Assembly (NCBI GenBank): GCA_964464245.1
Contig: CAYXFH010000145.1
Span: 1 to 54,891, forward strand
Length of the DNA stretch: 54,891 bases
Source of the DNA: an uncultured bacterium
GTDB lineage: Bacteria; Caldisericota; JANLFM01
Direction: 5' to 3'
Under the pieces are notes generated by a model. That model saw only the letters and a list, made by a program, of their open reading frames with translations, was not told the DNA's origin and ran no database searches. Each line of letters begins with the position of its first letter. Position 1 is the stretch's first letter. Position numbers and translations under genes: made by a program. Below are positions 2,732-33,551 of the stretch, piece after piece.

Positions 2732-3444
2732 TATTCCATGCTGCCGCAGGCTGTTCTGTTAACTTGCTCGCCATAAGGGTCGCGGTGAGCTCGCTCGATC
2801 AGCTCATCGGAACGCATCCTGCTCGAATCGTAGCGTTCCTGGTGAGTGAACGAATCGGCCGGTCGGCGAGGCCTAGGCTCTCTGTCCTCATTGGGGTAAC
2901 CCAAGGGCAAGATGCAGACGATGCGTAGCGGATCCGGAATCTCCAGAAGAGATTTTACTTCCTCCGGGAAGAAGTTGGTGAAAACGGCAGTGCCCAGTCC
3001 CAGTGCAGTAACAGCCAGCAGCATATTCTGGATGGCCATGCTTACGCTGCCCCAGAAGGCAAATTGCTCAATGTTCTCCTCGACCTGGTGCATCATGCTG
3101 ACGTACCGGAAACGAGGATCCCCGATCACCACCAAGTGGACAGGGGCTTCCATCAAATATCCACCGGTAAACGTACGGAGGAAGGGGAAATCTCTTAGTT
3201 CCTTGATTCGCTTGATACAACGCTGCACACTTAATTGAATTTTTTCCTTGGTGTCCAGATCGCGCACCACCAGGAATTCCCAGGGTTGAGAATTGGCACT
3301 GGATGGCGCCCATCGACCAGCTTCGATGATCTTGGCGATACTCTCATCCGATACTGGGTCTGGCCTGAATGACCGGATTGAGCGCCGTTTCTGCATCAGC
3401 GTGAGTAAAGATTCGATTCCTATGCACGAATTTCCCTGGCTCAC
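2731..3444 (-). CDS. Nitroreductase family (FMN-dependent) protein
   Basis: 237 aa. It contains RRSIRSFRPDPVSDESIAKIIEAGRWAPSSANSQPWEFLVVRD, the classic nitroreductase N-terminal signature. The GTG start overlaps the aminotransferase stop (GTGA). Confidence 0.85.
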   Translation of the reverse strand: MSQGNSCIGIESLLTLMQKRRSIRSFRPDPVSDESIAKIIEAGRWAPSSANSQPWEFLVVRDLDTKEKIQLSVQRCIKRIKELRDFPFLRTFTGGYLMEAPVHLVVIGDPRFRYVSMMHQVEENIEQFAFWGSVSMAIQNMLLAVTALGLGTAVFTNFFPEEVKSLLEIPDPLRIVCILPLGYPNEDREPRPRRPADSFTHQERYDSSRMRSDELIERAHRDPYGEQVNRTACGSME

Positions 3445-23086: not shown

Positions 23087-24382
23087 CTAGCTGGGTTGCG
23101 GTTTTTCTTTCGCTTTCTCCCAAACAAGATCCAATTCCTCGACGCTCATGTTCGTTGTTTCTTTGCCAATACGGCCGGCGATCTCAACCACGCGCTTGGA
23201 GCGGGCCAGGAACTTATCGATAGAGCGGTGCAGCGCTTCCTCCGGGTTCAAGCGGAGGAAGCGGGAAAGATTGACAAGACTGAAGAGCAGATCGCCAATC
23301 TCCTCTTCGATCTGGTCCGGTTTTTCCCCATGAACCGCTTCCTGCAGTTCCCGCCATTCCTCCCCTACCTTGTCCAGCACACCGGCGCTATCCCGCCAAT
23401 CGAGCCCCTGGAGGGAGGCCGTCTCTTGGATGCGTTCCGCTCGGCTTAGAGCGGGCATGTAACGCCGGGCTTTTTCCTCCCCGTTCCGCTGCTCCTGACT
23501 GTCTTTGATGTCCTCCCACTGCTGCTCTACTCCATCCGGCGACAATTCGCGCCTTTGGTTAAAGACGTGTGGATGACGCTGGACCAGTTTTCGGGTGATG
23601 CGGTGCAAGACCTGGGAAAGGGTAAATTCTTCCTCTTCCTCGGCAATCACAGCATGGAAGACGACCTGCAAGAAGACGTCGCCCAATTCCCCGGCCAATG
23701 CTTCACTGTTCCCCTGGCGCACCGCTTCGATCAATTCCCAGGATTCCTCCAACAAATACTTGGTCAGCGAACGGTGTGTCTGTTGGCGGTCCCAAGGACA
23801 GCGACTGCGCAAGGCGCGCATGATGCGGTTGAACTCTTGAAATCGTTCCCCCTCTTCCGGCTGAGCTCGCAGAAGATGAGGGGTAATCCTCTCTAAGGCG
23901 CAGCGCAAGTCATCGTCCCGGCAACCTTTGATCAAGGCGCCCACGCGTCCTGCCGCTTCACCGAGGGAAATTCCTTGCGCAAGCAAGAAGAAGGAGAGGT
24001 AGGTTGCAGCCAAGGCGCTGCTACGGTCTGAACCGATCAGCACGGGGCGTTCCATCTCCCGCATCAGCAGGAGGAAGTCGAGGAACTGAATCAGGTCAGA
24101 GCGGGAAGGCCAAGGGCCTTCCGGCGGATGCTGGGTCAACTGCTCGAAGCTTGGTCCCCATGATGGGCTGGAACCATCTAAAAGCAGAGCCAAAGAGAAG
24201 ATCCCTTGCTCCTCAAGGCTCTCCCGACTAGGCAAGACTGTCCCCTCCAATAAAGCCACACGTTCAGGCAACAACCAGTGAATAGCCCCCGGCAGCATGA
24301 CAGCCCCCGGCAGCATGACAGCCCCCGGCAGCATGACAGCCCCCGGCAGCATGACAGCCCCCGGCAGGGTGTCCTGGATCAT
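23087..24382 (-). CDS. mazG: MazG-type nucleoside triphosphate pyrophosphohydrolase (tandem MazG domains, YabN-like position) with an unrecognised N-terminal region
   Basis: The C-terminal roughly 240 aa carry two MazG repeats (CPWDRQQTHRSLTKYLLEESWELIEA...ELGDVFLQV and EEWRELQEA...EEIGDLLFSLVNL). The N-terminus begins with (LPGAVM)x4 encoded by an 18-nt tandem repeat. It lies downstream of mfd, as yabN does in Bacillus. Confidence 0.85.
   Translation of the reverse strand: MIQDTLPGAVMLPGAVMLPGAVMLPGAVMLPGAIHWLLPERVALLEGTVLPSRESLEEQGIFSLALLLDGSSPSWGPSFEQLTQHPPEGPWPSRSDLIQFLDFLLLMREMERPVLIGSDRSSALAATYLSFFLLAQGISLGEAAGRVGALIKGCRDDDLRCALERITPHLLRAQPEEGERFQEFNRIMRALRSRCPWDRQQTHRSLTKYLLEESWELIEAVRQGNSEALAGELGDVFLQVVFHAVIAEEEEEFTLSQVLHRITRKLVQRHPHVFNQRRELSPDGVEQQWEDIKDSQEQRNGEEKARRYMPALSRAERIQETASLQGLDWRDSAGVLDKVGEEWRELQEAVHGEKPDQIEEEIGDLLFSLVNLSRFLRLNPEEALHRSIDKFLARSKRVVEIAGRIGKETTNMSVEELDLVWEKAKEKPQPS
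24284..24373. repeat. Five tandem 18-nt units (4x AGCCCCCGGCAGCATGAC plus the terminal variant AGCCCCCGGCAGGGTGTC)
   Basis: Read directly from the sequence. The four full units are perfect and fall in frame within the first 32 codons of the mazG-like gene. Confidence 0.97.
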
Positions 24383-27300
24383 TAGCCCGCTTCCTGGGTG
24401 GAAACAGCCACCCCAGCTTTGATAGGGGCGGGCTTGTGATTAGTAAGGATCCGCAGCAGCTCTTCGGCGCGGTCAAGGGCATTTCCCAGCTCATCTTCCT
24501 CAAGACGAAGGTAGAAGTCGGCTTCTCGTATTTTGAAGCGCTTGGGGAAGCGGCGCGCCAGCAAGACGAGGCGCTCCGGGTCGAAGAACGGCTCCGGCCC
24601 GACCTCGAAAACGAGAAGGCGGTCGTCCAGACGTACCCGTTCGATTCCGGCTTTCTCGGCCATTAAGCGCACACGGCTTACCCGCAGAAGATTCTCCAAG
24701 GGAAGAGGGATCGGCCCGAAGCGGTCACGCAATTGCTGGGCGACCTGACCCAACTCGTCCTCTCCGTGGATCTCCGGTCGCCCCAGAGAAGCGAGCCGCT
24801 CGTACAATTCCATCTTGCTCCCCTCGTCAGGGATGTAGTCGGATGGGATATAAGCGCTGATCTCCATCTCCAAGACGCTGTGCGAAATAAGTGGGATCTC
24901 TTCCTCGTCCATCTCAACCGGTATCGCCTCTCCCTTTCGCAGTCGGTCCATGGCCTCCTCCAACATCTGCCGGTACATTTGATAGCCGACGTTGATCATA
25001 AAGCCGTGCTGTTCTTCCCCAAGCAGATTCCCTGCTCCACGTATCTCCAGATCGCGGGTGGCGATCAAGAGGCCGGCCCCGAGGGTCGTGAAATCGCGAA
25101 TCGCTTCCAGGCGTTTCTCGGATTCTTCGGACAATGCGCGGCGCTTGGGGTAAAGGAAATAGGCATAGGCATGAATGTCGCTGCGCCCGACCCGCCCGCG
25201 CAATTGATAGAGCTGAGCCAAACCAAGGTTCTGGGCGTCTGAGACGATCAATGTATTAACATTGGGGAGGTCGATCCCACTTTCGATAATGGCAGTGCAA
25301 AGAAGGATATCGAATTGACCTTGGGCAAACTCCCACATCGTCTTCTCTAACCTCTCCTCAGCCATCTGACCATGCGCGGTGGCAATGCGGGCGTCCGGGA
25401 GAATAGATTGAAGGCGAGCGTGCAACCTTGGCAGTCCATGTATTCGGTTGTGTACCACGAAGGCCTGCCCGCCCCGTTCTATCTCTCGCAAGAGAGCGCT
25501 GCGGACGATTCCCTCATCTGCCTCCACAACATAAGTCTTCACTGGAAAACGGTTGGCCGGCGCGGTTTCGATCATGCTCACTTCGCGGATCCCCAAGAGG
25601 CTCATCTGAAGTGTGCGGGGAATGGGCGTAGCGGACAAGGTGAGAACATGCAAGTCCCCCTTCCACTCACGTATGCGCTCCTTTTGAAGAACCCCGAAAC
25701 GTTGCTCCTCATCGATGATCAACAACCCCAGATCTTTGAACTGGACGCGCTTCCCGAGCAAGCTATGGGTTCCGATGAGGATGTCGACGCGACCTTCGAC
25801 CACCTTTTGAAGAATCTCTTTCTGTTCTCCTTGCGAGCGGAAGCGGGAAAGCATTTCCGTTTGCACCGGGAAGTGACGCAATCGCTCTTGAAAGGTATTG
25901 AAGTGCTGCTGGCAGAGGATTGTCGTAGGGGCCAGAAAAGCCACTTGCTTATTGGCTAAAACGGCGCGGAAGGCGGCACGCAAAGCTACTTCCGTCTTAC
26001 CGTAGCCGACGTCGCCGCAGATCAAGCGGTCCATCGGTTTTTGCCGTTGCAGATCCCTCATGACATCCTGAATGGCTCTCTCTTGGTCTGCTGTCTCCTC
26101 AAAGGCGAAAGTCATGGAGAGATCTTCTTCCCAAGGCTGAACCTCGGGATAGGGTTCGGGAGCGGCGACCTCTCGGGCGGCATATAGCTCCAGCAGTTGA
26201 TGTGCAATTTCAGCCACTGCCCGTCGTGCTTTGCGTTTGGTGCGAGCCCAATCGGGGGAATGCAGGCGGGACAAAGAAGGCAGCTTGACGTTGTCTCCTA
26301 GGTACTTGGCCACCAGATAAATCTGTTCACTGGGAACATAAAGCTTGTCCTGGTCGGCGTAGGAGATCTGGATGTAGTCTCGAGAAAGACCATCGATCTC
26401 CAGAGTGGCCAGTCCCTGGTAACGCCCGATCCCGTATGTCTCATGAACGACCAGATCCCCTGATTTCAGCTCTTCCCAAGAGCTAAGAATCTTCGCTTCG
26501 CGGTATCGGCGCTCGCTTTTTGGTTTGCGTCGCCAACCGAACAACTCCATCTCGGAGACAAGGGTTAATTCCAAGGAGGGAAGCGTGAAACCAGGCGCAG
26601 GCGCCGTTTTCCACAGATAAGCCGCTCCTGGTTGCAGATCTCGGGCCCAATCCATCTCTTCAAGCGGAAGATCCTGGCTGCGAAAGAGATCCTGGTAGCG
26701 GGCTATCCCTCTGCCGGCAAGGATCACCCGCCGCCCTTCCTTTAACCACCCCTTCATCACTGGAAGAAAATCGGAGAGTTGCCCCTGGTATGAGGGCAAG
26801 GCTTGGTAAGGGAAATCGACATCTCCCCCGAAGGAAGAAAAGGAGAGGGACGGGAAAGAGTGAAAAACGGCTTGAAGCGACCACCAATCGGGAAGCAAGG
26901 GAAACTCAGCGGTCTGGCCGGCGCCAATCTCCCAGGACACTCTTCCGGGGGCTGTCATCCTTCCGGGGGCTGTCAAATTGCCGCGGGCTGTCGTGCCATA
27001 CGGGACTGCCTCGCCTTGATCGAGAGCGCTGCGGTAGGACATTTCACTGGCGCGCCGCGTCTCCTCGAAGGCTTGCTGCAGTTTCCCTTCCTCTTCCGAT
27101 AGAATCAAGGTAGATGGGGGTAAATGAGATAAAAGACTAGCCACGGGAGAGAAGAAAGGGTGATAATATTCTTCCCCAAGAAAGTGCATTCCCTTTTCCA
27201 ACAATCTCAAGTCAGACCCGACCGTCTCCTCTAGAAACCGAGCCTCGCTGGTCCGAAGGCGCTCGCGCAGCCTCTTGTGCTGGCGAGACAAGCCGGCTTG

Positions 27301-28005
27301 GATTGCCGCCAACCCTTCCTCATGAATCGAGAAAGCCCGCCAGGGGAGCAGCAGCGCTTCCTCAACCTGCCCTTCGGAGACTTGCGCACTGGGATCAAAG
27401 AGTCGTATCGAAGCCAAGACGTCTCCTTCGAATTCGAAGCGCAATGGAAGGGGTGAGCTTGGCGTGAACACATCGACGATGGCGCCTCGCTGGCTGTATT
27501 CACCGAGCGCTTCCACTCGGGCGCTTCGGCTATAGCCCGCCCCGTTGAGGAAACTCAGGAAGTCCTCACGCCACACCTCTTGGCCGAGACGAAATGCCAT
27601 GCGCTGTTGGTTGAAATAGCTGGGTGAAGGGCAAGACTGAAGCAAGGATCTCAAGGTTGCGCAGACTACCGGCAGACGACCTCCCCGGAGCTCCCACAGC
27701 GTGCTCAGGCGAGTTGCAAGAGTAGTCGAATCAGCAGGAGCTTTCTCACCGAAGTGCGGTTTCAGTGCTGGAAAAGGGTACACTGGAAGGCCCCACTCGG
27801 CCAGCAAGGATGCTGTCCTCTCCATCGGTTCTCCTTCTGCGAAGAGCAACAGCAGGGGGCGCAGCAACGACTGATAAATAGCGTAAATGAGAAGTGGCCG
27901 AAGACCTTCCCCCACCTGACCTAGACGCTGAGGATGACCTGCTTCCAAGCTGCTGATCAGCTTCCGCATGCCTTGTTCAGAGAGAAGCAACGAGGCCAGA
28001 TTCAT
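24382..28005 (-). CDS. mfd: Transcription-repair coupling factor Mfd
   Basis: I chose the start at 28005 (MNLASLLL), which forms an ATGA overlap with the pth stop. The protein has the RNA-polymerase-interacting CarD-like region ([13 protein letters not shown]), helicase motifs ([31 protein letters not shown]) and the TRG region. Confidence 0.95.
26936..26989. repeat. Three tandem 18-nt units of the same repeat family, opposite orientation, inside mfd
   Basis: The minus strand reads ACAGCCCGCGGCAATTTG ACAGCCCCCGGAAGGATG ACAGCCCCCGGAAGAGTG TCCTGG. This encodes [18 protein letters not shown]. Confidence 0.9.
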
Positions 28006-28604
28006 GGGGCGAGGAGGTTCTTCTTGTTGAAGCGGTTCATGCACATCGCGATACCCTCCCCCAGCCAGCAGTCGATACCGCGTTGAGCTTGCTCGATGAG
28101 CGCCGGAAGACAACCTTCATCCTCCGGCAAGAAAGGTTCGAGGATAAAATCTAGAGCTTTTTTCCCAGCTTCTCGACCTACGCCGAAGCGAAGGCGATCG
28201 AATTCAGCTTTTCGTACGTATTGCAGGATCGACGCCAGCCCTTGGTGACCTCCGGAGGAGCCTCCATGCTTGAAGCGGATCTCGCCCAAAGGCAGATCCG
28301 CATCATCGTGAATCACCAAGATCTCCTCCGCCTGGATGTGATAGAAACTACCGGCCCCGGCAACAGCTAGTCCAGACAGGTTCATAAAAGTCTGCGGCAA
28401 GAGAAGCAACCACCCTTCTCCTACCGCGATCTTTCCATGAAAACGCTTCCTCCAAGGAAGAACCCGTCGTTCCTCAGCAAAGGCTTGGGCGATGCGGAAG
28501 CCGATGTTGTGCCGGCTATTCCGGTATTCCATCCCCGGATTTCCCAGGCCGACGATCAGTCTAGCCCCCGGCATCTTGACAGCCCCCGGCAGGGAGTCCT
28601 TCAA
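28002..28604 (-). CDS. pth: Peptidyl-tRNA hydrolase
   Basis: It has LIVGLGNPGMEYRNSRHNIGF and HDDADLPLGEIRFKHGGSSGGHQG. The track start is TTG at 28604. An alternative ATG at 28574 (MPGARLIVGLGNPG) gives a canonical N-terminus. Confidence 0.93.
   Translation of the reverse strand: MKDSLPGAVKMPGARLIVGLGNPGMEYRNSRHNIGFRIAQAFAEERRVLPWRKRFHGKIAVGEGWLLLLPQTFMNLSGLAVAGAGSFYHIQAEEILVIHDDADLPLGEIRFKHGGSSGGHQGLASILQYVRKAEFDRLRFGVGREAGKKALDFILEPFLPEDEGCLPALIEQAQRGIDCWLGEGIAMCMNRFNKKNLLAP
28563..28598. repeat. Two 18-nt units of the same repeat family at the 5' end of pth
   Basis: AGCCCCCGGCATCTTGAC AGCCCCCGGCAGGGAGTC on the plus strand, antisense to pth. It encodes LPGAVKMPGA. Confidence 0.9.
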
Positions 28605-28606
28605 GA

Positions 28607-29242
28607 TTACGCTTCTTTGGCAGTCCTCTCGGCAGATTTGTTAGGAGCTTCCGCCACGACAGCGGGTGTCTCAACAACCTCTTCCTTCTCGGGTGGGATC
28701 AAAGTCACTACAGCCGTGCCGGCATCGGTGACGAGTCTTACTTTCTCTGGAAGAACCAAGTCTGCGGCGAATAGGCTATCACCGATACCCAACCCGCTGA
28801 CATCAACTACCAGGTAACTAGGGATGTCCATCGGCAGGCACTCTACTTCAACTTGGTGAAGATTCTCTTGCATAATGCCGCCCTCCTTGACGCCGATAGG
28901 AGTTCCGCGCAAATGGAGCGGTACATGGGCGCTGATCACTAATTCCAGGGAGATGGCATGAAAATCAATGTGCTGGATGGTTCGGTAGACGGGCTCACGC
29001 TGCAGTTCCTTCACAATCGTCACGACTGGTTTGGTTTCACCCTCTACCAGTAAGCTGAAGATGGCGTTGGAGCCGCTTCGCTCCAGCGTCTTGACGAAGC
29101 CTTTGTGATCGACGGCGATGGCTATCGGCTCAACGTTCTTGCCATACACGACAGCGGGAATCCATCCCTGCCGTCGTAAGCCATGCGTTTCCCCCTTGGT
29201 TGTGGCAGCCCTTCGGGATGCCTCTAATCGGACTTCTGCCAT
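28607..29242 (-). CDS. ctc: 50S ribosomal protein L25 / general stress protein Ctc
   Basis: 211 aa with GETHGLRRQGWIPAVVYG and a two-domain Ctc-type length. Synteny is prs-ctc-pth. Confidence 0.92.
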   Translation of the reverse strand: MAEVRLEASRRAATTKGETHGLRRQGWIPAVVYGKNVEPIAIAVDHKGFVKTLERSGSNAIFSLLVEGETKPVVTIVKELQREPVYRTIQHIDFHAISLELVISAHVPLHLRGTPIGVKEGGIMQENLHQVEVECLPMDIPSYLVVDVSGLGIGDSLFAADLVLPEKVRLVTDAGTAVVTLIPPEKEEVVETPAVVAEAPNKSAERTAKEA

Positions 29243-29257
29243 GATTATTCTCCTTTC

Positions 29258-30253
29258 CTAATACAGGGCGATTTGTTCGGATGAACCGTAGCTGAAGAGG
29301 TCTGAGATGGAACGGTTCTCGCGGATGCGGGTGATCCCTTCCCCCAAGAGCGGCGCCACGGAGAGGACCTTAATCTTGTCGATCATCTTTTCAGGGGGGA
29401 TGGGAACAGTATTGGTCACCACTAATTCGGCAATTGGAGAATCGGCAAGCATTTTCACCGAGTCGCCACAAAGGACCGCGTGGGTGCAAGCTGCGATGAT
29501 CTGCCGCGCTCCGGCCTTATAGATCGTGTCGGCAGCAGAGAGCAGCGTCTTCCCGGTGGTAATCATGTCGTCCACCAAGACTGCCACCTTCCCGCTGACG
29601 TCCCCGATCACTCCCATCGTTTCCACTCGGTCAGGGCCCATGCGACGCTTCTCAACGATGGCCAGGGAGTAGTTCAGTTTATCCGAGAGAATGCGGGTTC
29701 GAGGAACCCGGCCGATGTCGGGTGAGACCACTACTGCCTCTTGCAGACCTTTCTTCTTAAGGAAGTAGTCTTGAAAGAGCAGGCTGGCTGTCAGATTGTC
29801 GAAGGGGATGTTGAAGAAGCCCTGGATCTGGCCGGCATGAAGGTCAACAGCCACCACTCGGTTGGCTCCGGCCACCGTCAACAGGTCGGCCACCAATTTA
29901 GCAGTGATCGGCTCTCGCGGCTTAGTCTTGCGGTCCTGGCGACCGTAGCCGTAGTATGGCACGATGGCGGTGATGCTCCTGGCCGACGCTCTCTTCAGCG
30001 AGTCGATCATGACCAGCAATTCCACCAGGTTCTCGTTGACGGGTGGGCAAGTCGGCTGGAGGAGGAAAACATCCTGTCCGCGCACGCTCTCTTGGCAACG
30101 GACATGGATCTCGCCGTCCGGGAAGCGCGATGCTTCCATGGCGCCGAGAGGAATATGGAGAAAATCGGCGACCTCTTGAGCCAGGGCTAGGTTGGCATTC
30201 CCGCTGAATAGATGAAACTCCCTGCCGGGGGCTGTCTGCTCTTCCAAGCTCAT
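29258..30253 (-). CDS. prs: Ribose-phosphate pyrophosphokinase
   Basis: 331 aa with FSGNANLALAQEVA, RFPDGE, YYGYGRQDRK and VLVDDMITTGKTL. Confidence 0.95.
   Translation of the reverse strand: MSLEEQTAPGREFHLFSGNANLALAQEVADFLHIPLGAMEASRFPDGEIHVRCQESVRGQDVFLLQPTCPPVNENLVELLVMIDSLKRASARSITAIVPYYGYGRQDRKTKPREPITAKLVADLLTVAGANRVVAVDLHAGQIQGFFNIPFDNLTASLLFQDYFLKKKGLQEAVVVSPDIGRVPRTRILSDKLNYSLAIVEKRRMGPDRVETMGVIGDVSGKVAVLVDDMITTGKTLLSAADTIYKAGARQIIAACTHAVLCGDSVKMLADSPIAELVVTNTVPIPPEKMIDKIKVLSVAPLLGEGITRIRENRSISDLFSYGSSEQIALY
30219..30234. repeat. Single copy of the repeat-family terminal unit near the 5' end of prs
   Basis: The minus strand reads GACAGCCCCCGGCAGGGAGTT (codons 7-12, TAPGRE). It matches the terminal unit at the pth locus (AGCCCCCGGCAGGGAGT). 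Confidence 0.8.
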
Positions 30254-31239
30254 CGTTCTTCTCCTCGATTAGACAGGCCTTGCATGCAGGACAGCCCGCG
30301 ACAGCGCGTCCCGTCCGGGATGACGGCGTCAACCAAATGCAGGAAGGGTCCCAGCACACAACCTTGACCGATACGGCAGGCGCCTTCCAGAACAGTAAAA
30401 GGCTTGATCACGGTGTCCGGCTTCAAGCGCACTTCCCAGTCCAAAGAGACGCTGCTCGGGTCTTCCATTGTGACTCCCGCTCTCATCCACTGGCGCAATA
30501 TGCGGTCATGCAAGATGCTCCGGCATTGACTTAGCTGCATTCGATCGTTGACCCCGATGACAGGAATATCATCCACCCGGATAGCCTGAACGTTTCCCGC
30601 CTTGCGCATCATCGGCAGCACGTCGTTCAGGTAGTACTCGCCTTGGGCGTTTTCGGGGCAAAGACGCTCCAGGTAGCCGAAGACCGCCGGTAGGGAAAAA
30701 GCATAGACAGAAGTGGACACCTCATGGATGGTCTTCTCGGCGGCGCCGGCATCCGCTTCCTCAATGATCGAGTCGAAAGCGCCATCGGCATTGCGACGAA
30801 CACGCCCCAGGAGAGAAGGATCCTCCACATCAGCAGTCAGAACTGAACCCAAACACTGCGATTGAGACTGGTGCGCTTCCAACAAACGAGAGAGATGATC
30901 GGTTCGCACTAAAGGGATGTCTCCCGGCAAGACCAGTAATGTCCCGGTCTCGTCACTCAAGGCTTCCCTGGCTTGCTGCAAGGCGTGTCCAGTCCCAAGC
31001 TGGTGATTCTGCCACGCATAACGGTAGCCGGATCCGATTTGCTCTTGCACCTGTTCCCCACCATGACCGACAACGATCACTGTCTGCGCCAAGTTCAGCG
31101 GTTTTAAGGAATCCAAGGCGTAGGAAATCATCGGCCGCCCCAGTAAGGAGTGTAAAACTTTGGGGAGAGCGGAATTCATTCGCTTACCCATGCCGGCTGC
31201 CAACACGACTGCATACAAGCGTTCTTGCATGATCCTCAC
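30250..31239 (-). CDS. glmU: GlmU-like N-acetylglucosamine-1-phosphate uridyltransferase with a truncated left-handed beta-helix (acetyltransferase) domain
   Basis: 329 aa. It has the nucleotidyltransferase motif AVVLAAGMGKRMNSALPKVLH and GTGHAL. Only about 70 aa follow the helical arm before the stop, which overlaps the prs start (ATGA). The start is GTG at 31239 or ATG at 31230. Confidence 0.8.
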   Translation of the reverse strand: MRIMQERLYAVVLAAGMGKRMNSALPKVLHSLLGRPMISYALDSLKPLNLAQTVIVVGHGGEQVQEQIGSGYRYAWQNHQLGTGHALQQAREALSDETGTLLVLPGDIPLVRTDHLSRLLEAHQSQSQCLGSVLTADVEDPSLLGRVRRNADGAFDSIIEEADAGAAEKTIHEVSTSVYAFSLPAVFGYLERLCPENAQGEYYLNDVLPMMRKAGNVQAIRVDDIPVIGVNDRMQLSQCRSILHDRILRQWMRAGVTMEDPSSVSLDWEVRLKPDTVIKPFTVLEGACRIGQGCVLGPFLHLVDAVIPDGTRCRGLSCMQGLSNRGEER

Positions 31240-31249
31240 TTGTTCGTTT

Positions 31250-31323
31250 TGGCTGGGGAGGATGGGCTCGAACCACCGTCGGCGGATCCAAAGTCCGCTG
31301 TCCTACCACTGGACGACTCCCCA
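31250..31323 (-). tRNA. tRNA-Gln (anticodon UUG), CCA encoded
   Basis: I folded it by hand as TGGGGAG-TC-GTCC-AGTGGTA-GGAC-A-GCGGA-CTTTGGA-TCCGC-CGAC-GGTGG-TTCGAGC-CCATC-CTCCCCA-G-CCA. Confidence 0.9.
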
Positions 31324-31389: not shown

Positions 31390-31465
31390 TGGTACCCCCA
31401 GGCGGAATTGAACCGCCGTCTTCGCCTTGAAAGGGCGATGTCCTCGGCCACTAGACTATGGGGGC
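31390..31465 (-). tRNA. tRNA-Glu (anticodon UUC), CCA encoded
   Basis: I folded it by hand as GCCCCCA-TA-GTCT-AGTGGCCGA-GGAC-A-TCGCC-CTTTCAA-GGCGA-AGAC-GGCGG-TTCAATT-CCGCC-TGGGGGT-A-CCA. Confidence 0.9.
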
Positions 31466-33474: not shown

Positions 33475-33551
33475 TGGTGAGCCGTGCAGGACTCGAACCT
33501 GCGACCCCCTGCTTAAAAGGCAGATGCTCTACCATGCTGAGCTAACGGCCC
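33475..33551 (-). tRNA. tRNA-Lys (anticodon UUU), CCA encoded
   Basis: The sequence GGGCCGTTAGCTCAGCATGGTAGAGCATCTGCCTTTTAAGCAGGGGGTCGCAGGTTCGAGTCCTGCACGGCTCACCA gives a cloverleaf by hand, with anticodon loop CTTTTAA. Confidence 0.9.

Follow-up and report, generated by a model that had tools for sequence, protein, structure and literature searches.

A capped, hairpin-free 18-nt tandem repeat dispersed through the genomes of uncultured lake bacteria and inserted in frame in housekeeping genes

Mobile-looking small dispersed repeats (SDRs) have reportedly been described in Nostoc and relatives by Elhai et al. 2008 (Genome Res 18:1484); they are said to be only 21–27 nt long, to vary in presence and absence at orthologous sites and to nest within other repeats, and several SDR families are said to share a hairpin. 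Rickettsia palindromic elements (RPEs) are selfish repeats inserted many times in frame into unrelated housekeeping genes at protein-compatible positions (PMC10969869; Ogata 2000 as cited in PMC3184786). Mycobacterial interspersed repetitive units (MIRU-VNTR) form dispersed loci of head-to-tail repeats that vary in copy number among strains and sit at operon gene junctions, where their frames overlap those of the neighbours (PMC3184786). Pneumococcal BOX elements are modular and polar, combining a variable number of internal modules with a fixed terminal module, with occasional fusion to ORFs (PMC10969869, PMC3184786). REP, REPIN and BIME sequences are short, GC-rich, interspersed and mostly extragenic, with hairpin-forming inverted pairs, tandem clusters and mosaics (PMC3116915).

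Judged by its features, the family analysed here appears kin in kind to RPE, MIRU, BOX or SDR, with what seem to be new variant traits: it is tiny, capped and hairpin-free. As with RPEs, copies lie in frame in Prs, Mfd, Pth, MazG, EF-G, DnaX, MurC, CheA and SbcC, and orthologues lack them. RPEs, however, are palindromic single insertions of ~100–150 bp, whereas the unit here measures 18 nt (seed 21–27 nt), forms no hairpin and expands into a tandem array that a cap closes; intergenic copies predominate, and the lineage is unrelated. Like MIRU-VNTRs, the loci are dispersed, tandem and strain-variable in copy number, and three of the five in the window lie at gene junctions. MIRU units are ~40–100 bp long, occupy ~40–50 loci between genes and are oriented with the operon, whereas the 18-nt unit occurs in both orientations at >130 loci, reaches deep into genes and carries a distinct cap. 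The polar build, with variable internal units, a fixed terminal cap and occasional joining to ORFs, recalls BOX; BOX modules, by contrast, are ~45–60 bp with stable RNA structures, and differ from the present family in taxon and without any sequence relation. Seed size and behaviour recall SDRs, with an 18-nt solo at prs and 21-nt seeds at pth and mazG relative to empty sites. SDRs differ in phylum (the hosts here are non-cyanobacterial MAGs) and probably in sequence, and the unit here has no hairpin; SDRs are not known to form capped 18-nt tandem arrays or to insert frequently in frame in genes.

The window, the whole 54,891-nt (54.9-kb) stretch of DNA that was analysed, holds five repeat loci in one string of genes:

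23087..31239, minus strand: host gene string of glmU-like, prs, ribosomal protein L25, pth, mfd and mazG-like genes (ORFs and Pfam)
23087..24382, minus strand: mazG-like gene (Pfam MazG match)
24284..24376, plus strand: mazG-like array of 5 units, 4 internal AGCCCCCGGCAGCATGAC and the cap AGCCCCCGGCAGGGTGTCCTG
24382..28005/28113, minus strand: mfd gene (ORF, Pfam)
26933..26991, minus strand: mfd array of 3 units, ACAGCCCGCGGCAATTTG, ACAGCCCCCGGAAGGATG, then the cap ACAGCCCCCGGAAGAGTGTCCTG
28002..28604, minus strand: pth gene, with an array at its 5' end
28561..28599, plus strand: pth array of 2 units, a 39-nt net insertion of CTAGCCCCCGGCATCTTGAC and AGCCCCCGGCAGGGAGTCC
29258..30253, minus strand: prs gene (ORF, Pfam)
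30217..30234, minus strand: prs solo unit, an 18-nt insertion CAGCCCCCGGCAGGGAGT at codons 7–12
30250..31239, minus strand: glmU-like gene, host of the fifth repeat copy
30286..30313, plus strand: glmU-like fifth member, degenerate (GACAGCCCGCGACAGCGCGTCC), within the C-terminal codons

The host genes are co-directional, and their stops and starts overlap or abut (ATGA at glmU/prs, TAATG at mfd/mazG). Four of these loci had been reported in the initial annotation, and their coordinates, strands and unit counts (5, 3, 2 and 1) hold; the degenerate copy in the glmU-like gene had been missed. Motif counts lie far above those of shuffled sequence: the window contains 9 exact copies of the core AGCCCCCGGMAG, where 0.03 would be expected, AGCCCCCGG has 10 against 0.82, and the 18-mer with up to 3 mismatches allowed has 7 against 0.13. 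Tandem Repeats Finder returned a period-18 array at 24284–24367 (4.7 copies, 100% matches) and a second at 26945–26992.

Each array consists of n 18-nt units, a 12-nt core plus an array-specific 6-nt linker, followed at one end only by a conserved cap, AGCCCCCGGCAGGGTGTYCTG. A terminal variant had been noticed earlier; the polar, capped architecture to which it belongs had been recognised only in part. The cap logo stops sharply after GTTCTG, and the consensus of solo copies is ~27 nt. What spreads is a non-palindromic seed ~21–27 nt long, (CTNGAC)-AGCCCCCGGCAG-GGTGTYCTG. Arrays are homogeneous inside one locus and differ from locus to locus, and the 12-nt core is near-perfectly conserved over ~300 units in three species. 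Across 65 arrays, cap-proximal units carry a mean of 0.23 mismatches and cap-distal units 0.89; this polarity towards the cap is not what simple slippage predicts. At mfd, the 5'-most unit is degenerate (AGCCCGCGGCAA). Periods of 15, 21, 24, 30 and 39 occur besides 18, as expected under generic slippage. The 18-nt unit is non-palindromic, as originally described, and alone forms no significant hairpin (fold z = 0.06 as DNA, −0.35 as RNA), values that rule out a hairpin or terminator role for it.

Relatives at ~90% identity have empty sites for all five window loci, including mfd, where they hold 0, 1 or 2 units. At prs, the start is conserved (ATG with a GAGGAG Shine-Dalgarno 7 nt upstream): relatives L124, L126 and L127 read GAGCAGA/TTCATC across the insertion point, exactly 18 nt fewer, and Prs has 325 aa in six relatives and 331 here. 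The mazG empty site in L124 and L127, ATGGTC/ATTCACTGG, lacks the array, and MazG has 400 aa in relatives against 431 here. For pth, relatives have a TTG start followed directly by AAACTGATCGTC (KLIVGLGNPG); Pth has 187 aa in 6 members of the cluster and 200 here. L124 and L127 read GGGACAAGAATGCAAGG at the glmU-like site, relative to which the window has a net gain of 18 nt and strain L001 of 36 nt. Mfd has 0 units in L124 (92% identity) and in L125 (68%); L127 carries a single degenerate unit, L126 has 2 and L001 has 5. The hexapeptides are absent from the relatives' Prs, Pth, MazG and Mfd and the empty DNA sites are clean; hence the units are lineage-specific insertions and not ancestral protein sequence, an outcome in favour of the initial interpretation.

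Comparison of filled and empty sites at prs, pth and mazG revealed no target-site duplication and slightly variable ends: CAGCC...GGGAGT at prs (18 nt), CTAGCC...GAGTCC at pth (21+18 nt) and AGCC...GTCCTG at mazG (21+72 nt). These ends are defined by four or five filled/empty comparisons only, and selection for frame may have trimmed them. The net insertions of 93 nt (mazG), 39 nt (pth) and 18 nt (prs) are multiples of three, and frame is kept as first stated, although not all are multiples of 18. The mfd empty sites already match the cap tail at 12 of 15 positions, a resemblance that prs, pth and mazG do not share. A cap tail that is target site rather than element is ruled out, as the empty sites of those three genes lack it.

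Copy number differs between strains, bearing out the tandem expandability proposed at first. Read from short-read MAG assemblies, the window and strain L001 have 2 and 6 units at pth, 3 and 5 at mfd, 5 and 7 at mazG, and 1 and 2 at glmU. It also differs between species, a solo cap in one relative corresponding to 7 units in JAPLHV01 ("HV"), and 1 unit plus cap in one relative to 4 units in JAPLHV01. The extra perfect unit at the L001 glmU-like site has the rare linker CACGAC, which recurs in the L001 mfd array; in JAPLHV01 the glmU and mfd arrays have this linker and a CCCGCGG/GCGTGTCC-type cap in common. Orthologous UvrA arrays in two species carry different linkers, and the mfd cap equals the genome-wide consensus in the window lineage and is a diverged version in the sister species. 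These patterns favour local copying and homogenisation.

Three related "Coprothermobacterota" lake MAG species carry the family throughout their genomes, and it is essentially absent elsewhere. A strict pattern found >103 stretches in genome contigs, mostly in JAPLHV01, JAPLHW01 and JBAXQG01; the remaining matches are single, in unrelated taxa and consistent with chance. For one species, the 325 kb sampled contained 131 arrays and 309 perfect cores, and the massive enrichment elsewhere in the source species and the sister species agrees with the dispersal first proposed. A viral collection gave only 14 single matches, at chance level, and a scan of a metagenome subset added only 3 short contigs. 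The genome also holds ~650-bp intergenic mosaics made of the units. Rfam scans of the window and ten repeat-rich loci returned tRNAs only, and neither the units nor the ~650-bp mosaic match any RNA family described there.

Within the window every copy is coding, as the initial annotation held; genome-wide this does not extend, with about 57–68% of arrays intergenic against 16–20% non-coding DNA and a third of arrays in or at genes, as tallied by our own crude codon-bias gene caller on loci chosen for having the motif. Coding DNA is thus tolerated, not preferred, a correction to the earlier reading, which is largely right. The orientation of arrays is unbiased with respect to the genes; few arrays lie between convergent genes, and 13–25 of the 131, according to the gene set used, sit at a gene start or immediately before it. 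Both orientations occur, and at least three reading frames are in use in confirmed genes. Of the readings proposed at first, LPGAVM and TAPGR(M/V/E), both are used: the mazG-like gene reads its array as (LPGAVM)n directly after the start codon, and the prs unit reads (Q)TAPGRE. They are not the sole readings, since one gene whose start codon is conserved reads DSPRQx, and in some other arrays the longest open frame gives AGGCxx. With both orientations, several frames and mostly intergenic copies, the family works at the DNA level, not the protein level.

In-gene arrays, judged by their open frames, would be translated. In proteins identified by Pfam, the array lies between the CheW and REC domains of CheA, after domain III of DnaX, and N-terminally in EF-G, CopA and a transketolase-like protein; CheR-TPR carries one in a linker, and MurC, SbcC and UvrA also have in-frame arrays. 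The mfd array reads as a 19-residue piece within a length-variable stretch after the UvrB-homology module, where orthologues without the unit have VVPYAS-ISWEIG (92% identical) or PPYGT-VSWQVG (68% identical). A weak structural match puts the site after E. coli Mfd residue ~289; because this mapping is weak, it is mainly the alignment gap pattern that suggests an inter-domain linker. At pth, a locus-specific G>T in the internal unit gives rise to an ATG that is in frame and lies 8 nt downstream from GGGGG, and the linker CATCTTGAC occurs at this one locus only among 191 internal units. All confirmed N-terminal arrays in the GGGGG-ATG orientation (mazG, pth and EF-G) have an in-frame ATG. Translation of pth and mazG may start at such an array-internal ATG, with only part of the array translated.

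We consider it probable that this is a lineage-specific, genome-wide miniature repeat, selfish or neutral, in which a seed is copied elsewhere in the genome, leaving no target duplication, and is then multiplied by slippage, and not a protein-coding design. First, the seed arrives as an insertion with no target-site duplication and slightly variable ends, as the filled and empty sites display, perhaps through short-patch templated repair or ectopic conversion from an existing copy, often a nearby one, via microhomology. Second, the 5' 18 nt (6-nt linker plus 12-nt core) multiplies in place while the seed tail stays as the cap, giving arrays that are more decayed away from the cap and strain-variable in number; replication slippage or unequal exchange, possibly helped by the G5/C5 runs, is the likely mechanism. 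Third, in-gene copies sit at protein termini, inter-domain linkers and surface loops, and the glmU-like, prs, pth, mfd and mazG genes here follow this pattern. With a length divisible by 3 and no stop codon in most frames, such copies would survive where additional Pro/Gly/Ala/Ser-rich hexapeptides are harmless. At 5' ends, in one orientation, every unit would supply GGGGG-N5-8-ATG, so translation may restart within the array. Against this account, the core is more conserved over ~300 units in three species than passive decay would allow; a trans-acting factor with sequence specificity, or selection, may be at work.

Instead, an enzyme acting in trans, a transposase or recombinase, could mobilise the units as non-autonomous substrates, in a REP/REPIN-RAYT-like way or by recognising the 12-nt core, with growth on the cap side through repeated enzymatic addition rather than slippage; we regard this as unlikely. 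The extreme conservation of core and cap over hundreds of copies in three species would fit such an enzyme, as would the polarity of the arrays and the replacement of units by different-linker units in orthologous arrays. Pairs of units in inverted orientation fold into strong hairpins (z = −3.7), as in REPINs (PMC3116915). The same genome carries a separate, classical REP-like perfect palindrome beginning GTAG, which abuts or interrupts arrays, and its unit-built ~650-bp mosaics are a further likeness to REPs. Yet a single unit forms no hairpin and lacks the defining REP palindrome (~20–40 nt), and insertion ends are variable without target-site duplication. REPs are, to our knowledge, essentially excluded from coding DNA; the present family is enriched between genes (57–68% against 16–20%) but, unlike REPs, has a third of its arrays in or at genes. 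A tblastn search of ~0.55 Mb, a minor part of the genome, with IS608 TnpA and E. coli RAYT queries found no credible Y1 transposase-like ORF or RAYT, which is weak evidence against an enzyme; its best RAYT/IS200 matches, a CheR-TPR gene and the rimP/nusA region, were dismissed. By Pfam, the genes that have an array on either side are ordinary ones (SbcD-like, TruA, GvpK, TMEM175 and 7TM-HD, with no transposase), and all-against-all blastn of the sampled loci recovered the mosaic and the arrays and no IS-sized repeat.

Comparably doubtful is a bolder reading, in which the seed is a mobile DNA that actively propagates itself, lacks a palindrome and ranks with the smallest on record; sequence-specific copying on the cap side would keep the core identical across loci and species, and the Shine-Dalgarno-like GGGGG plus ATG would be co-opted as a portable translation start at gene 5' ends, as at pth.

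Less probable again is a functional motif maintained by selection or molecular drive: a putative uptake-type sequence, a site for a nucleoid or regulatory protein, or a portable Shine-Dalgarno and ATG start. Conservation of the core across species in both orientations would suit it, as would the scarcity of arrays between convergent genes, the 13–25 of 131 at or just before gene starts, the in-frame ATG of the N-terminal mazG, pth and EF-G arrays, and the pth-specific substitution that places an ATG after GGGGG where relatives use TTG. New copies, however, are insertions of 18–39 nt and tandem duplications, not single dispersed motifs reached by point mutation and biased uptake as in DUS/USS; arrays lack orientation bias relative to genes, their copy number is unstable among strains, and those inside proteins and at C-termini are useless as start sites.

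That the hexapeptides are ancestral or convergent protein repeats, or the arrays assembly artefacts, has a negligible chance of being right: the in-frame, Pro/Gly-rich peptides and the short-read MAG source data would allow it, but it is already contradicted by the empty sites in relatives, by one DNA unit used in both orientations and several frames and mostly between genes, by the presence of the same loci in independent NCBI, ENA, JGI and Logan assemblies, and by arrays of 18–126 nt, below typical read length.

On our preferred reading, hairpin-free selfish or neutral repeats as short as 18–27 nt can colonise a bacterial genome and repeatedly lengthen essential proteins in frame, among them Mfd, Prs, Pth, EF-G, DnaX, MurC and UvrA. 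The arrays offer ready VNTR strain markers for an uncultured lake lineage, and N-terminal extensions and odd low-complexity inserts annotated in these MAGs would be repeat DNA rather than protein features. All five window sites fall inside 6 kb of the 54.9-kb window, with p ~7e-4 by our own simple scan statistic if placement is uniform. At ~2736–2759 on the minus strand there may be a sixth copy, solo and degenerate.

The 18-nt repeat that the initial annotation reported in frame in mazG-like, mfd, pth and prs, with common descent and tandem expandability proposed, is confirmed: the window contains AGCCCCCGGMAG 9 times without mismatch, where 0.03 occurrences are expected. Likewise, AGCCCCCGG has 10 matches against 0.82 expected and the 18-mer, with 3 or fewer mismatches allowed, has 7 where 0.13 are expected, and Tandem Repeats Finder places period-18 arrays at 24284-24367 and 26945-26992. 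The host genes follow one another on the minus strand as glmU-like, prs, L25, pth, mfd and mazG-like (ORFs; Pfam). Read in one orientation, the arrays share a common build of n x (AGCCCCCGGCAG + 6-nt linker) followed by a terminal unit, the cap, AGCCCCCGGCAGGG(T/A)GTCCT. Two degenerate copies extend the set:

~30286-30313: fifth member, in the last codons of the glmU-like gene
~2736-2759, minus strand: possible sixth member, a solo ACAGAACAGCCTGCGGCAGCATGG, in the last codons (…NRTACGSME, then stop) of a minus-strand ORF

The five firm sites cluster in 6 kb of the 54.9-kb window (p ~7e-4 by our own simple scan statistic, which assumes uniform placement).

Lake Pavin MAG contigs labelled "Coprothermobacterota bacterium" (GCA_026389455.1, locus L001) encode the window's Prs protein too, as do GCA_037130295.1 and assemblies from Logan and JGI; the window contig (NCBI) is a further strain. 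A search with Mfd returned orthologues at 92, 90, 88 and 68% identity (loci L124, L127, L126 and L125, respectively). Three related lake MAG species, JAPLHV01 (HV), JAPLHW01 (HW) and JBAXQG01 (QG), are mutually 87-92% identical in aligned DNA. DNA alignments with relatives, read together with protein comparison, revealed empty sites:

prs: GAGCAGA/TTCATC in relatives (slash, insertion point), with Prs of 325 aa in six cluster members; the window has a further 18 nt, CAGCCCCCGGCAGGGAGT, and 331 aa
pth: TTG start then directly AAACTGATCGTC in relatives, 187 aa; window +39 nt, 200 aa
mazG: ATGGTC/ATTCACTGG in relatives, 400 aa; window +93 nt, 431 aa
glmU-like C-terminus: relatives lack 18-36 nt; the window has a degenerate unit
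mfd: no units at 92% and 68% identity, one degenerate unit in HW, two in L126; three in the window and five in strain L001

The prs start codon is kept, with a GAGGAG Shine-Dalgarno sequence. Between strains with identical Prs, unit counts, taken from short-read MAG assemblies, differ at pth (2 vs 6), mfd (3 vs 5), mazG (5 vs 7) and glmU (1 vs 2). Outside the window region, HV has 7 units where one relative has the cap alone, and 4 units where QG has one unit plus cap. The initial annotation named two outcomes that would count against it, hexapeptides that are ancestral protein sequence and a motif not enriched elsewhere. Neither holds: relatives have empty sites at the hexapeptide positions, and the motif is abundant elsewhere, with 131 arrays in 325 kb of HV loci.

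Among the matches listed for genome contigs, the strict cap pattern occurs in more than 103 stretches, mostly in HV and also in HW and QG, and the other listed matches are single, in unrelated taxa and consistent with chance. A viral collection gave 14 single matches, at chance level, and a JGI metagenome subset 3. The 325 kb of sampled HV loci hold 309 perfect cores. There, 75 (lenient gene set) or 89 (strict set) of the 131 arrays are intergenic, as called by our own crude codon-bias gene caller in loci chosen for containing the motif, whereas just 16-20% of the DNA is non-coding. The family therefore favors intergenic DNA and merely tolerates coding DNA. No orientation bias relative to genes was detected among the 131 HV arrays, and few lie between convergent genes.

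Solo copies follow the consensus (C)TNGAC-AGCCCCCGGCAG-GGTGTTCTG, with conservation ending abruptly after GTTCTG. Arrays multiply the 5' 18 nt and retain a single cap. Linkers are array-specific; CAGCTCGAT (26), CAGCTAGAC (25), CAGCATGAC (23) and CAGCTTGAC (19) recur most often in the 191 internal units. Across 65 arrays, cap-adjacent units carry 0.23 mismatches against 0.89 at the far end, a count in which the cap belonged to the selection pattern and the neighboring units did not. Periods of 15, 21, 24, 30 and 39 nt are also present. A single unit has no hairpin (fold z = 0.06 as DNA, -0.35 as RNA); inverted unit pairs fold (z = -3.7).

About a third of the HV arrays touch genes, at the following positions (Pfam):

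CheA: array between the CheW and receiver domains
DnaX: array after domain III
EF-G: array just before the GTP-binding domain
CopA: array at the N-terminus
Transketolase-like protein: array at the N-terminus
SbcC: solo unit inside a domain
MurC: solo unit inside a domain
TerB-domain protein: array host
CheR-TPR: array in the linker, which also carries, in frame, a distinct REP-like palindrome

Genes with conserved starts or good homology use three frames, TAPGxx, LPGAVx and DSPRQx; the DnaX and transketolase-like arrays have a fourth, AGGCxx, as their longest open frame. Because several reading frames are used, the family is defined at the DNA level. A TerB-N/TerB-C protein of 1237 aa carries five internal NMTAPG repeats and a second, degenerate array of three QQDSLR near its C-terminus (locus L080, 7090-7150). 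In the window, the MazG domain begins only at about residue 183 of the mazG-like ORF, and the N-terminal 170-180 residues lack a Pfam match (residues 1-180, 23840-24382, minus strand). This region is kept in the 400-aa proteins of relatives and hence is not repeat-derived.

At new sites seeds appear with no target duplication, and their ends vary slightly: prs has gained 18 nt, pth and mazG 21 nt plus repeats. Array length changes by whole units, up and down, and arrays are homogenized within each locus. Several patterns suggest copying from existing members of the family, often close ones. In HV, the rare linker CACGAC and a CCCGCGG/GCGTGTCC-type cap are common to the glmU and mfd arrays, which are 3.4 kb apart and oppositely oriented; the window-lineage mfd cap equals the genome consensus, HW and L126 retaining a diverged version; linkers of orthologous UvrA arrays differ between HV and HW; and empty mfd sites match the cap tail at 12 of 15 positions. 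Compared with strain L002, both perfect-core units of the window mfd array bear an identical C>A, a sign of concerted change. Seeding, as we infer it together with the role of the cap and the translation of arrays, would proceed by short-patch templated copying through microhomology, and growth by replication slippage or unequal exchange; regularly spaced G5/C5 runs might, speculatively, favor stalling. Selection would then purge gene insertions other than in-frame, stop-free ones at tolerant positions.

In the pth/mazG/EF-G orientation each unit reads CCGGGGGCTGTC(A/AAG)ATG, placing an in-frame ATG 5-8 nt behind a run of G that resembles a Shine-Dalgarno sequence. The pth linker variant CATCTTGAC occurs at 28575-28580 (plus strand) in the window and at 11700-11770 in L001, and at no other locus among the 191 internal units; read in gene orientation, its G>T gives rise to an ATG that is in frame and 8 nt past GGGGG, at a place where relatives use a TTG start. 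A start within the array would limit the N-terminal extension to 3-4 residues. As a rival explanation, some copies might be recognition motifs or portable start sites kept by selection, but this does not fit the insertion-type origin of copies, their unstable number, the absent orientation bias and the copies inside proteins. Enzyme-driven mobilization, REPIN/RAYT-like or similar, is unlikely. It would account for the invariant core and the array polarity, but tblastn with IS608 TnpA and E. coli RAYT queries matched no transposase in the ~0.55 Mb of DNA covered, none adjoins the array-flanked genes, and no IS-sized repeats were found among the sampled loci. Ancestral protein repeats and assembly artefacts are excluded by empty sites, multiple reading frames and independent assemblies.

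The family has partial likenesses elsewhere. Rickettsia palindromic elements (RPE) also invade housekeeping genes in frame, and MIRU-VNTRs are also dispersed, length-variable tandem units at operon junctions (PMC10969869, PMC3184786 for the former; PMC3184786 for the latter). Unlike RPE and REP, the 18-nt family lacks their size and palindrome, and unlike MIRU it lacks the unit size and the intercistronic restriction. It resembles BOX elements in its variable internal module and fixed end, and in behavior the small dispersed repeats of Nostoc, reportedly 21-27 nt. It has no sequence or taxonomic link to RPE, REP, MIRU or BOX and belongs to none of them; its hosts are not cyanobacteria, and it is probably distinct from the Nostoc repeats as well. 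What sets it apart is the very small, hairpin-free unit, the polar arrays closed by a cap, and how often copies sit in frame in essential genes.

The genome has a second repeat family, GTAGGGGCGGGTTTCAAACCCGCCCCTAC. This perfect palindrome with a 13-bp stem resembles REP sequences and has GTAG at its 5' end (DNA fold z = -8). It adjoins or interrupts 18-nt arrays in loci L022 (6790-6905), L033 (799-865 and 2040-2085), L123 (7290-7325) and L077 (1395-1425), and has no copy in the window. In the CheR-TPR linker of L022 it lies in frame as two RRGGFQTRPQDSP with period 39. An intergenic mosaic of ~650 bp, with at least 24 copies at 70-80% identity in sampled HV loci, combines 18-nt units in opposite orientation near both ends, the palindrome and further short tandem repeats; the mosaic matches no Rfam family and lacks a convincing ORF. 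Copies include:

L077 1195-1900
L070 445-1055
L039 703-1368
L088 3865-4740
L118 4717-5389
L036 416-1233

As called mechanically, the mfd ORF begins at a TTG that lies 36 codons before the likely start (MNLASLL…; window 28006-28113, minus strand) and overlaps the pth end by 112 nt; in relatives mfd is called from the downstream Met or close to it. Rfam places three tRNA genes a short way upstream of the glmU-like string (31253-31323, 31393-31465 and 33478-33551, minus strand). A further tandem repeat, (AAACCACT)n-like, for example aaaccactaaaccactaaaccacttaacca, lies directly 5' of solo 18-nt units in L086 (640-670), L109 (350-385) and L054 (2820-2850).
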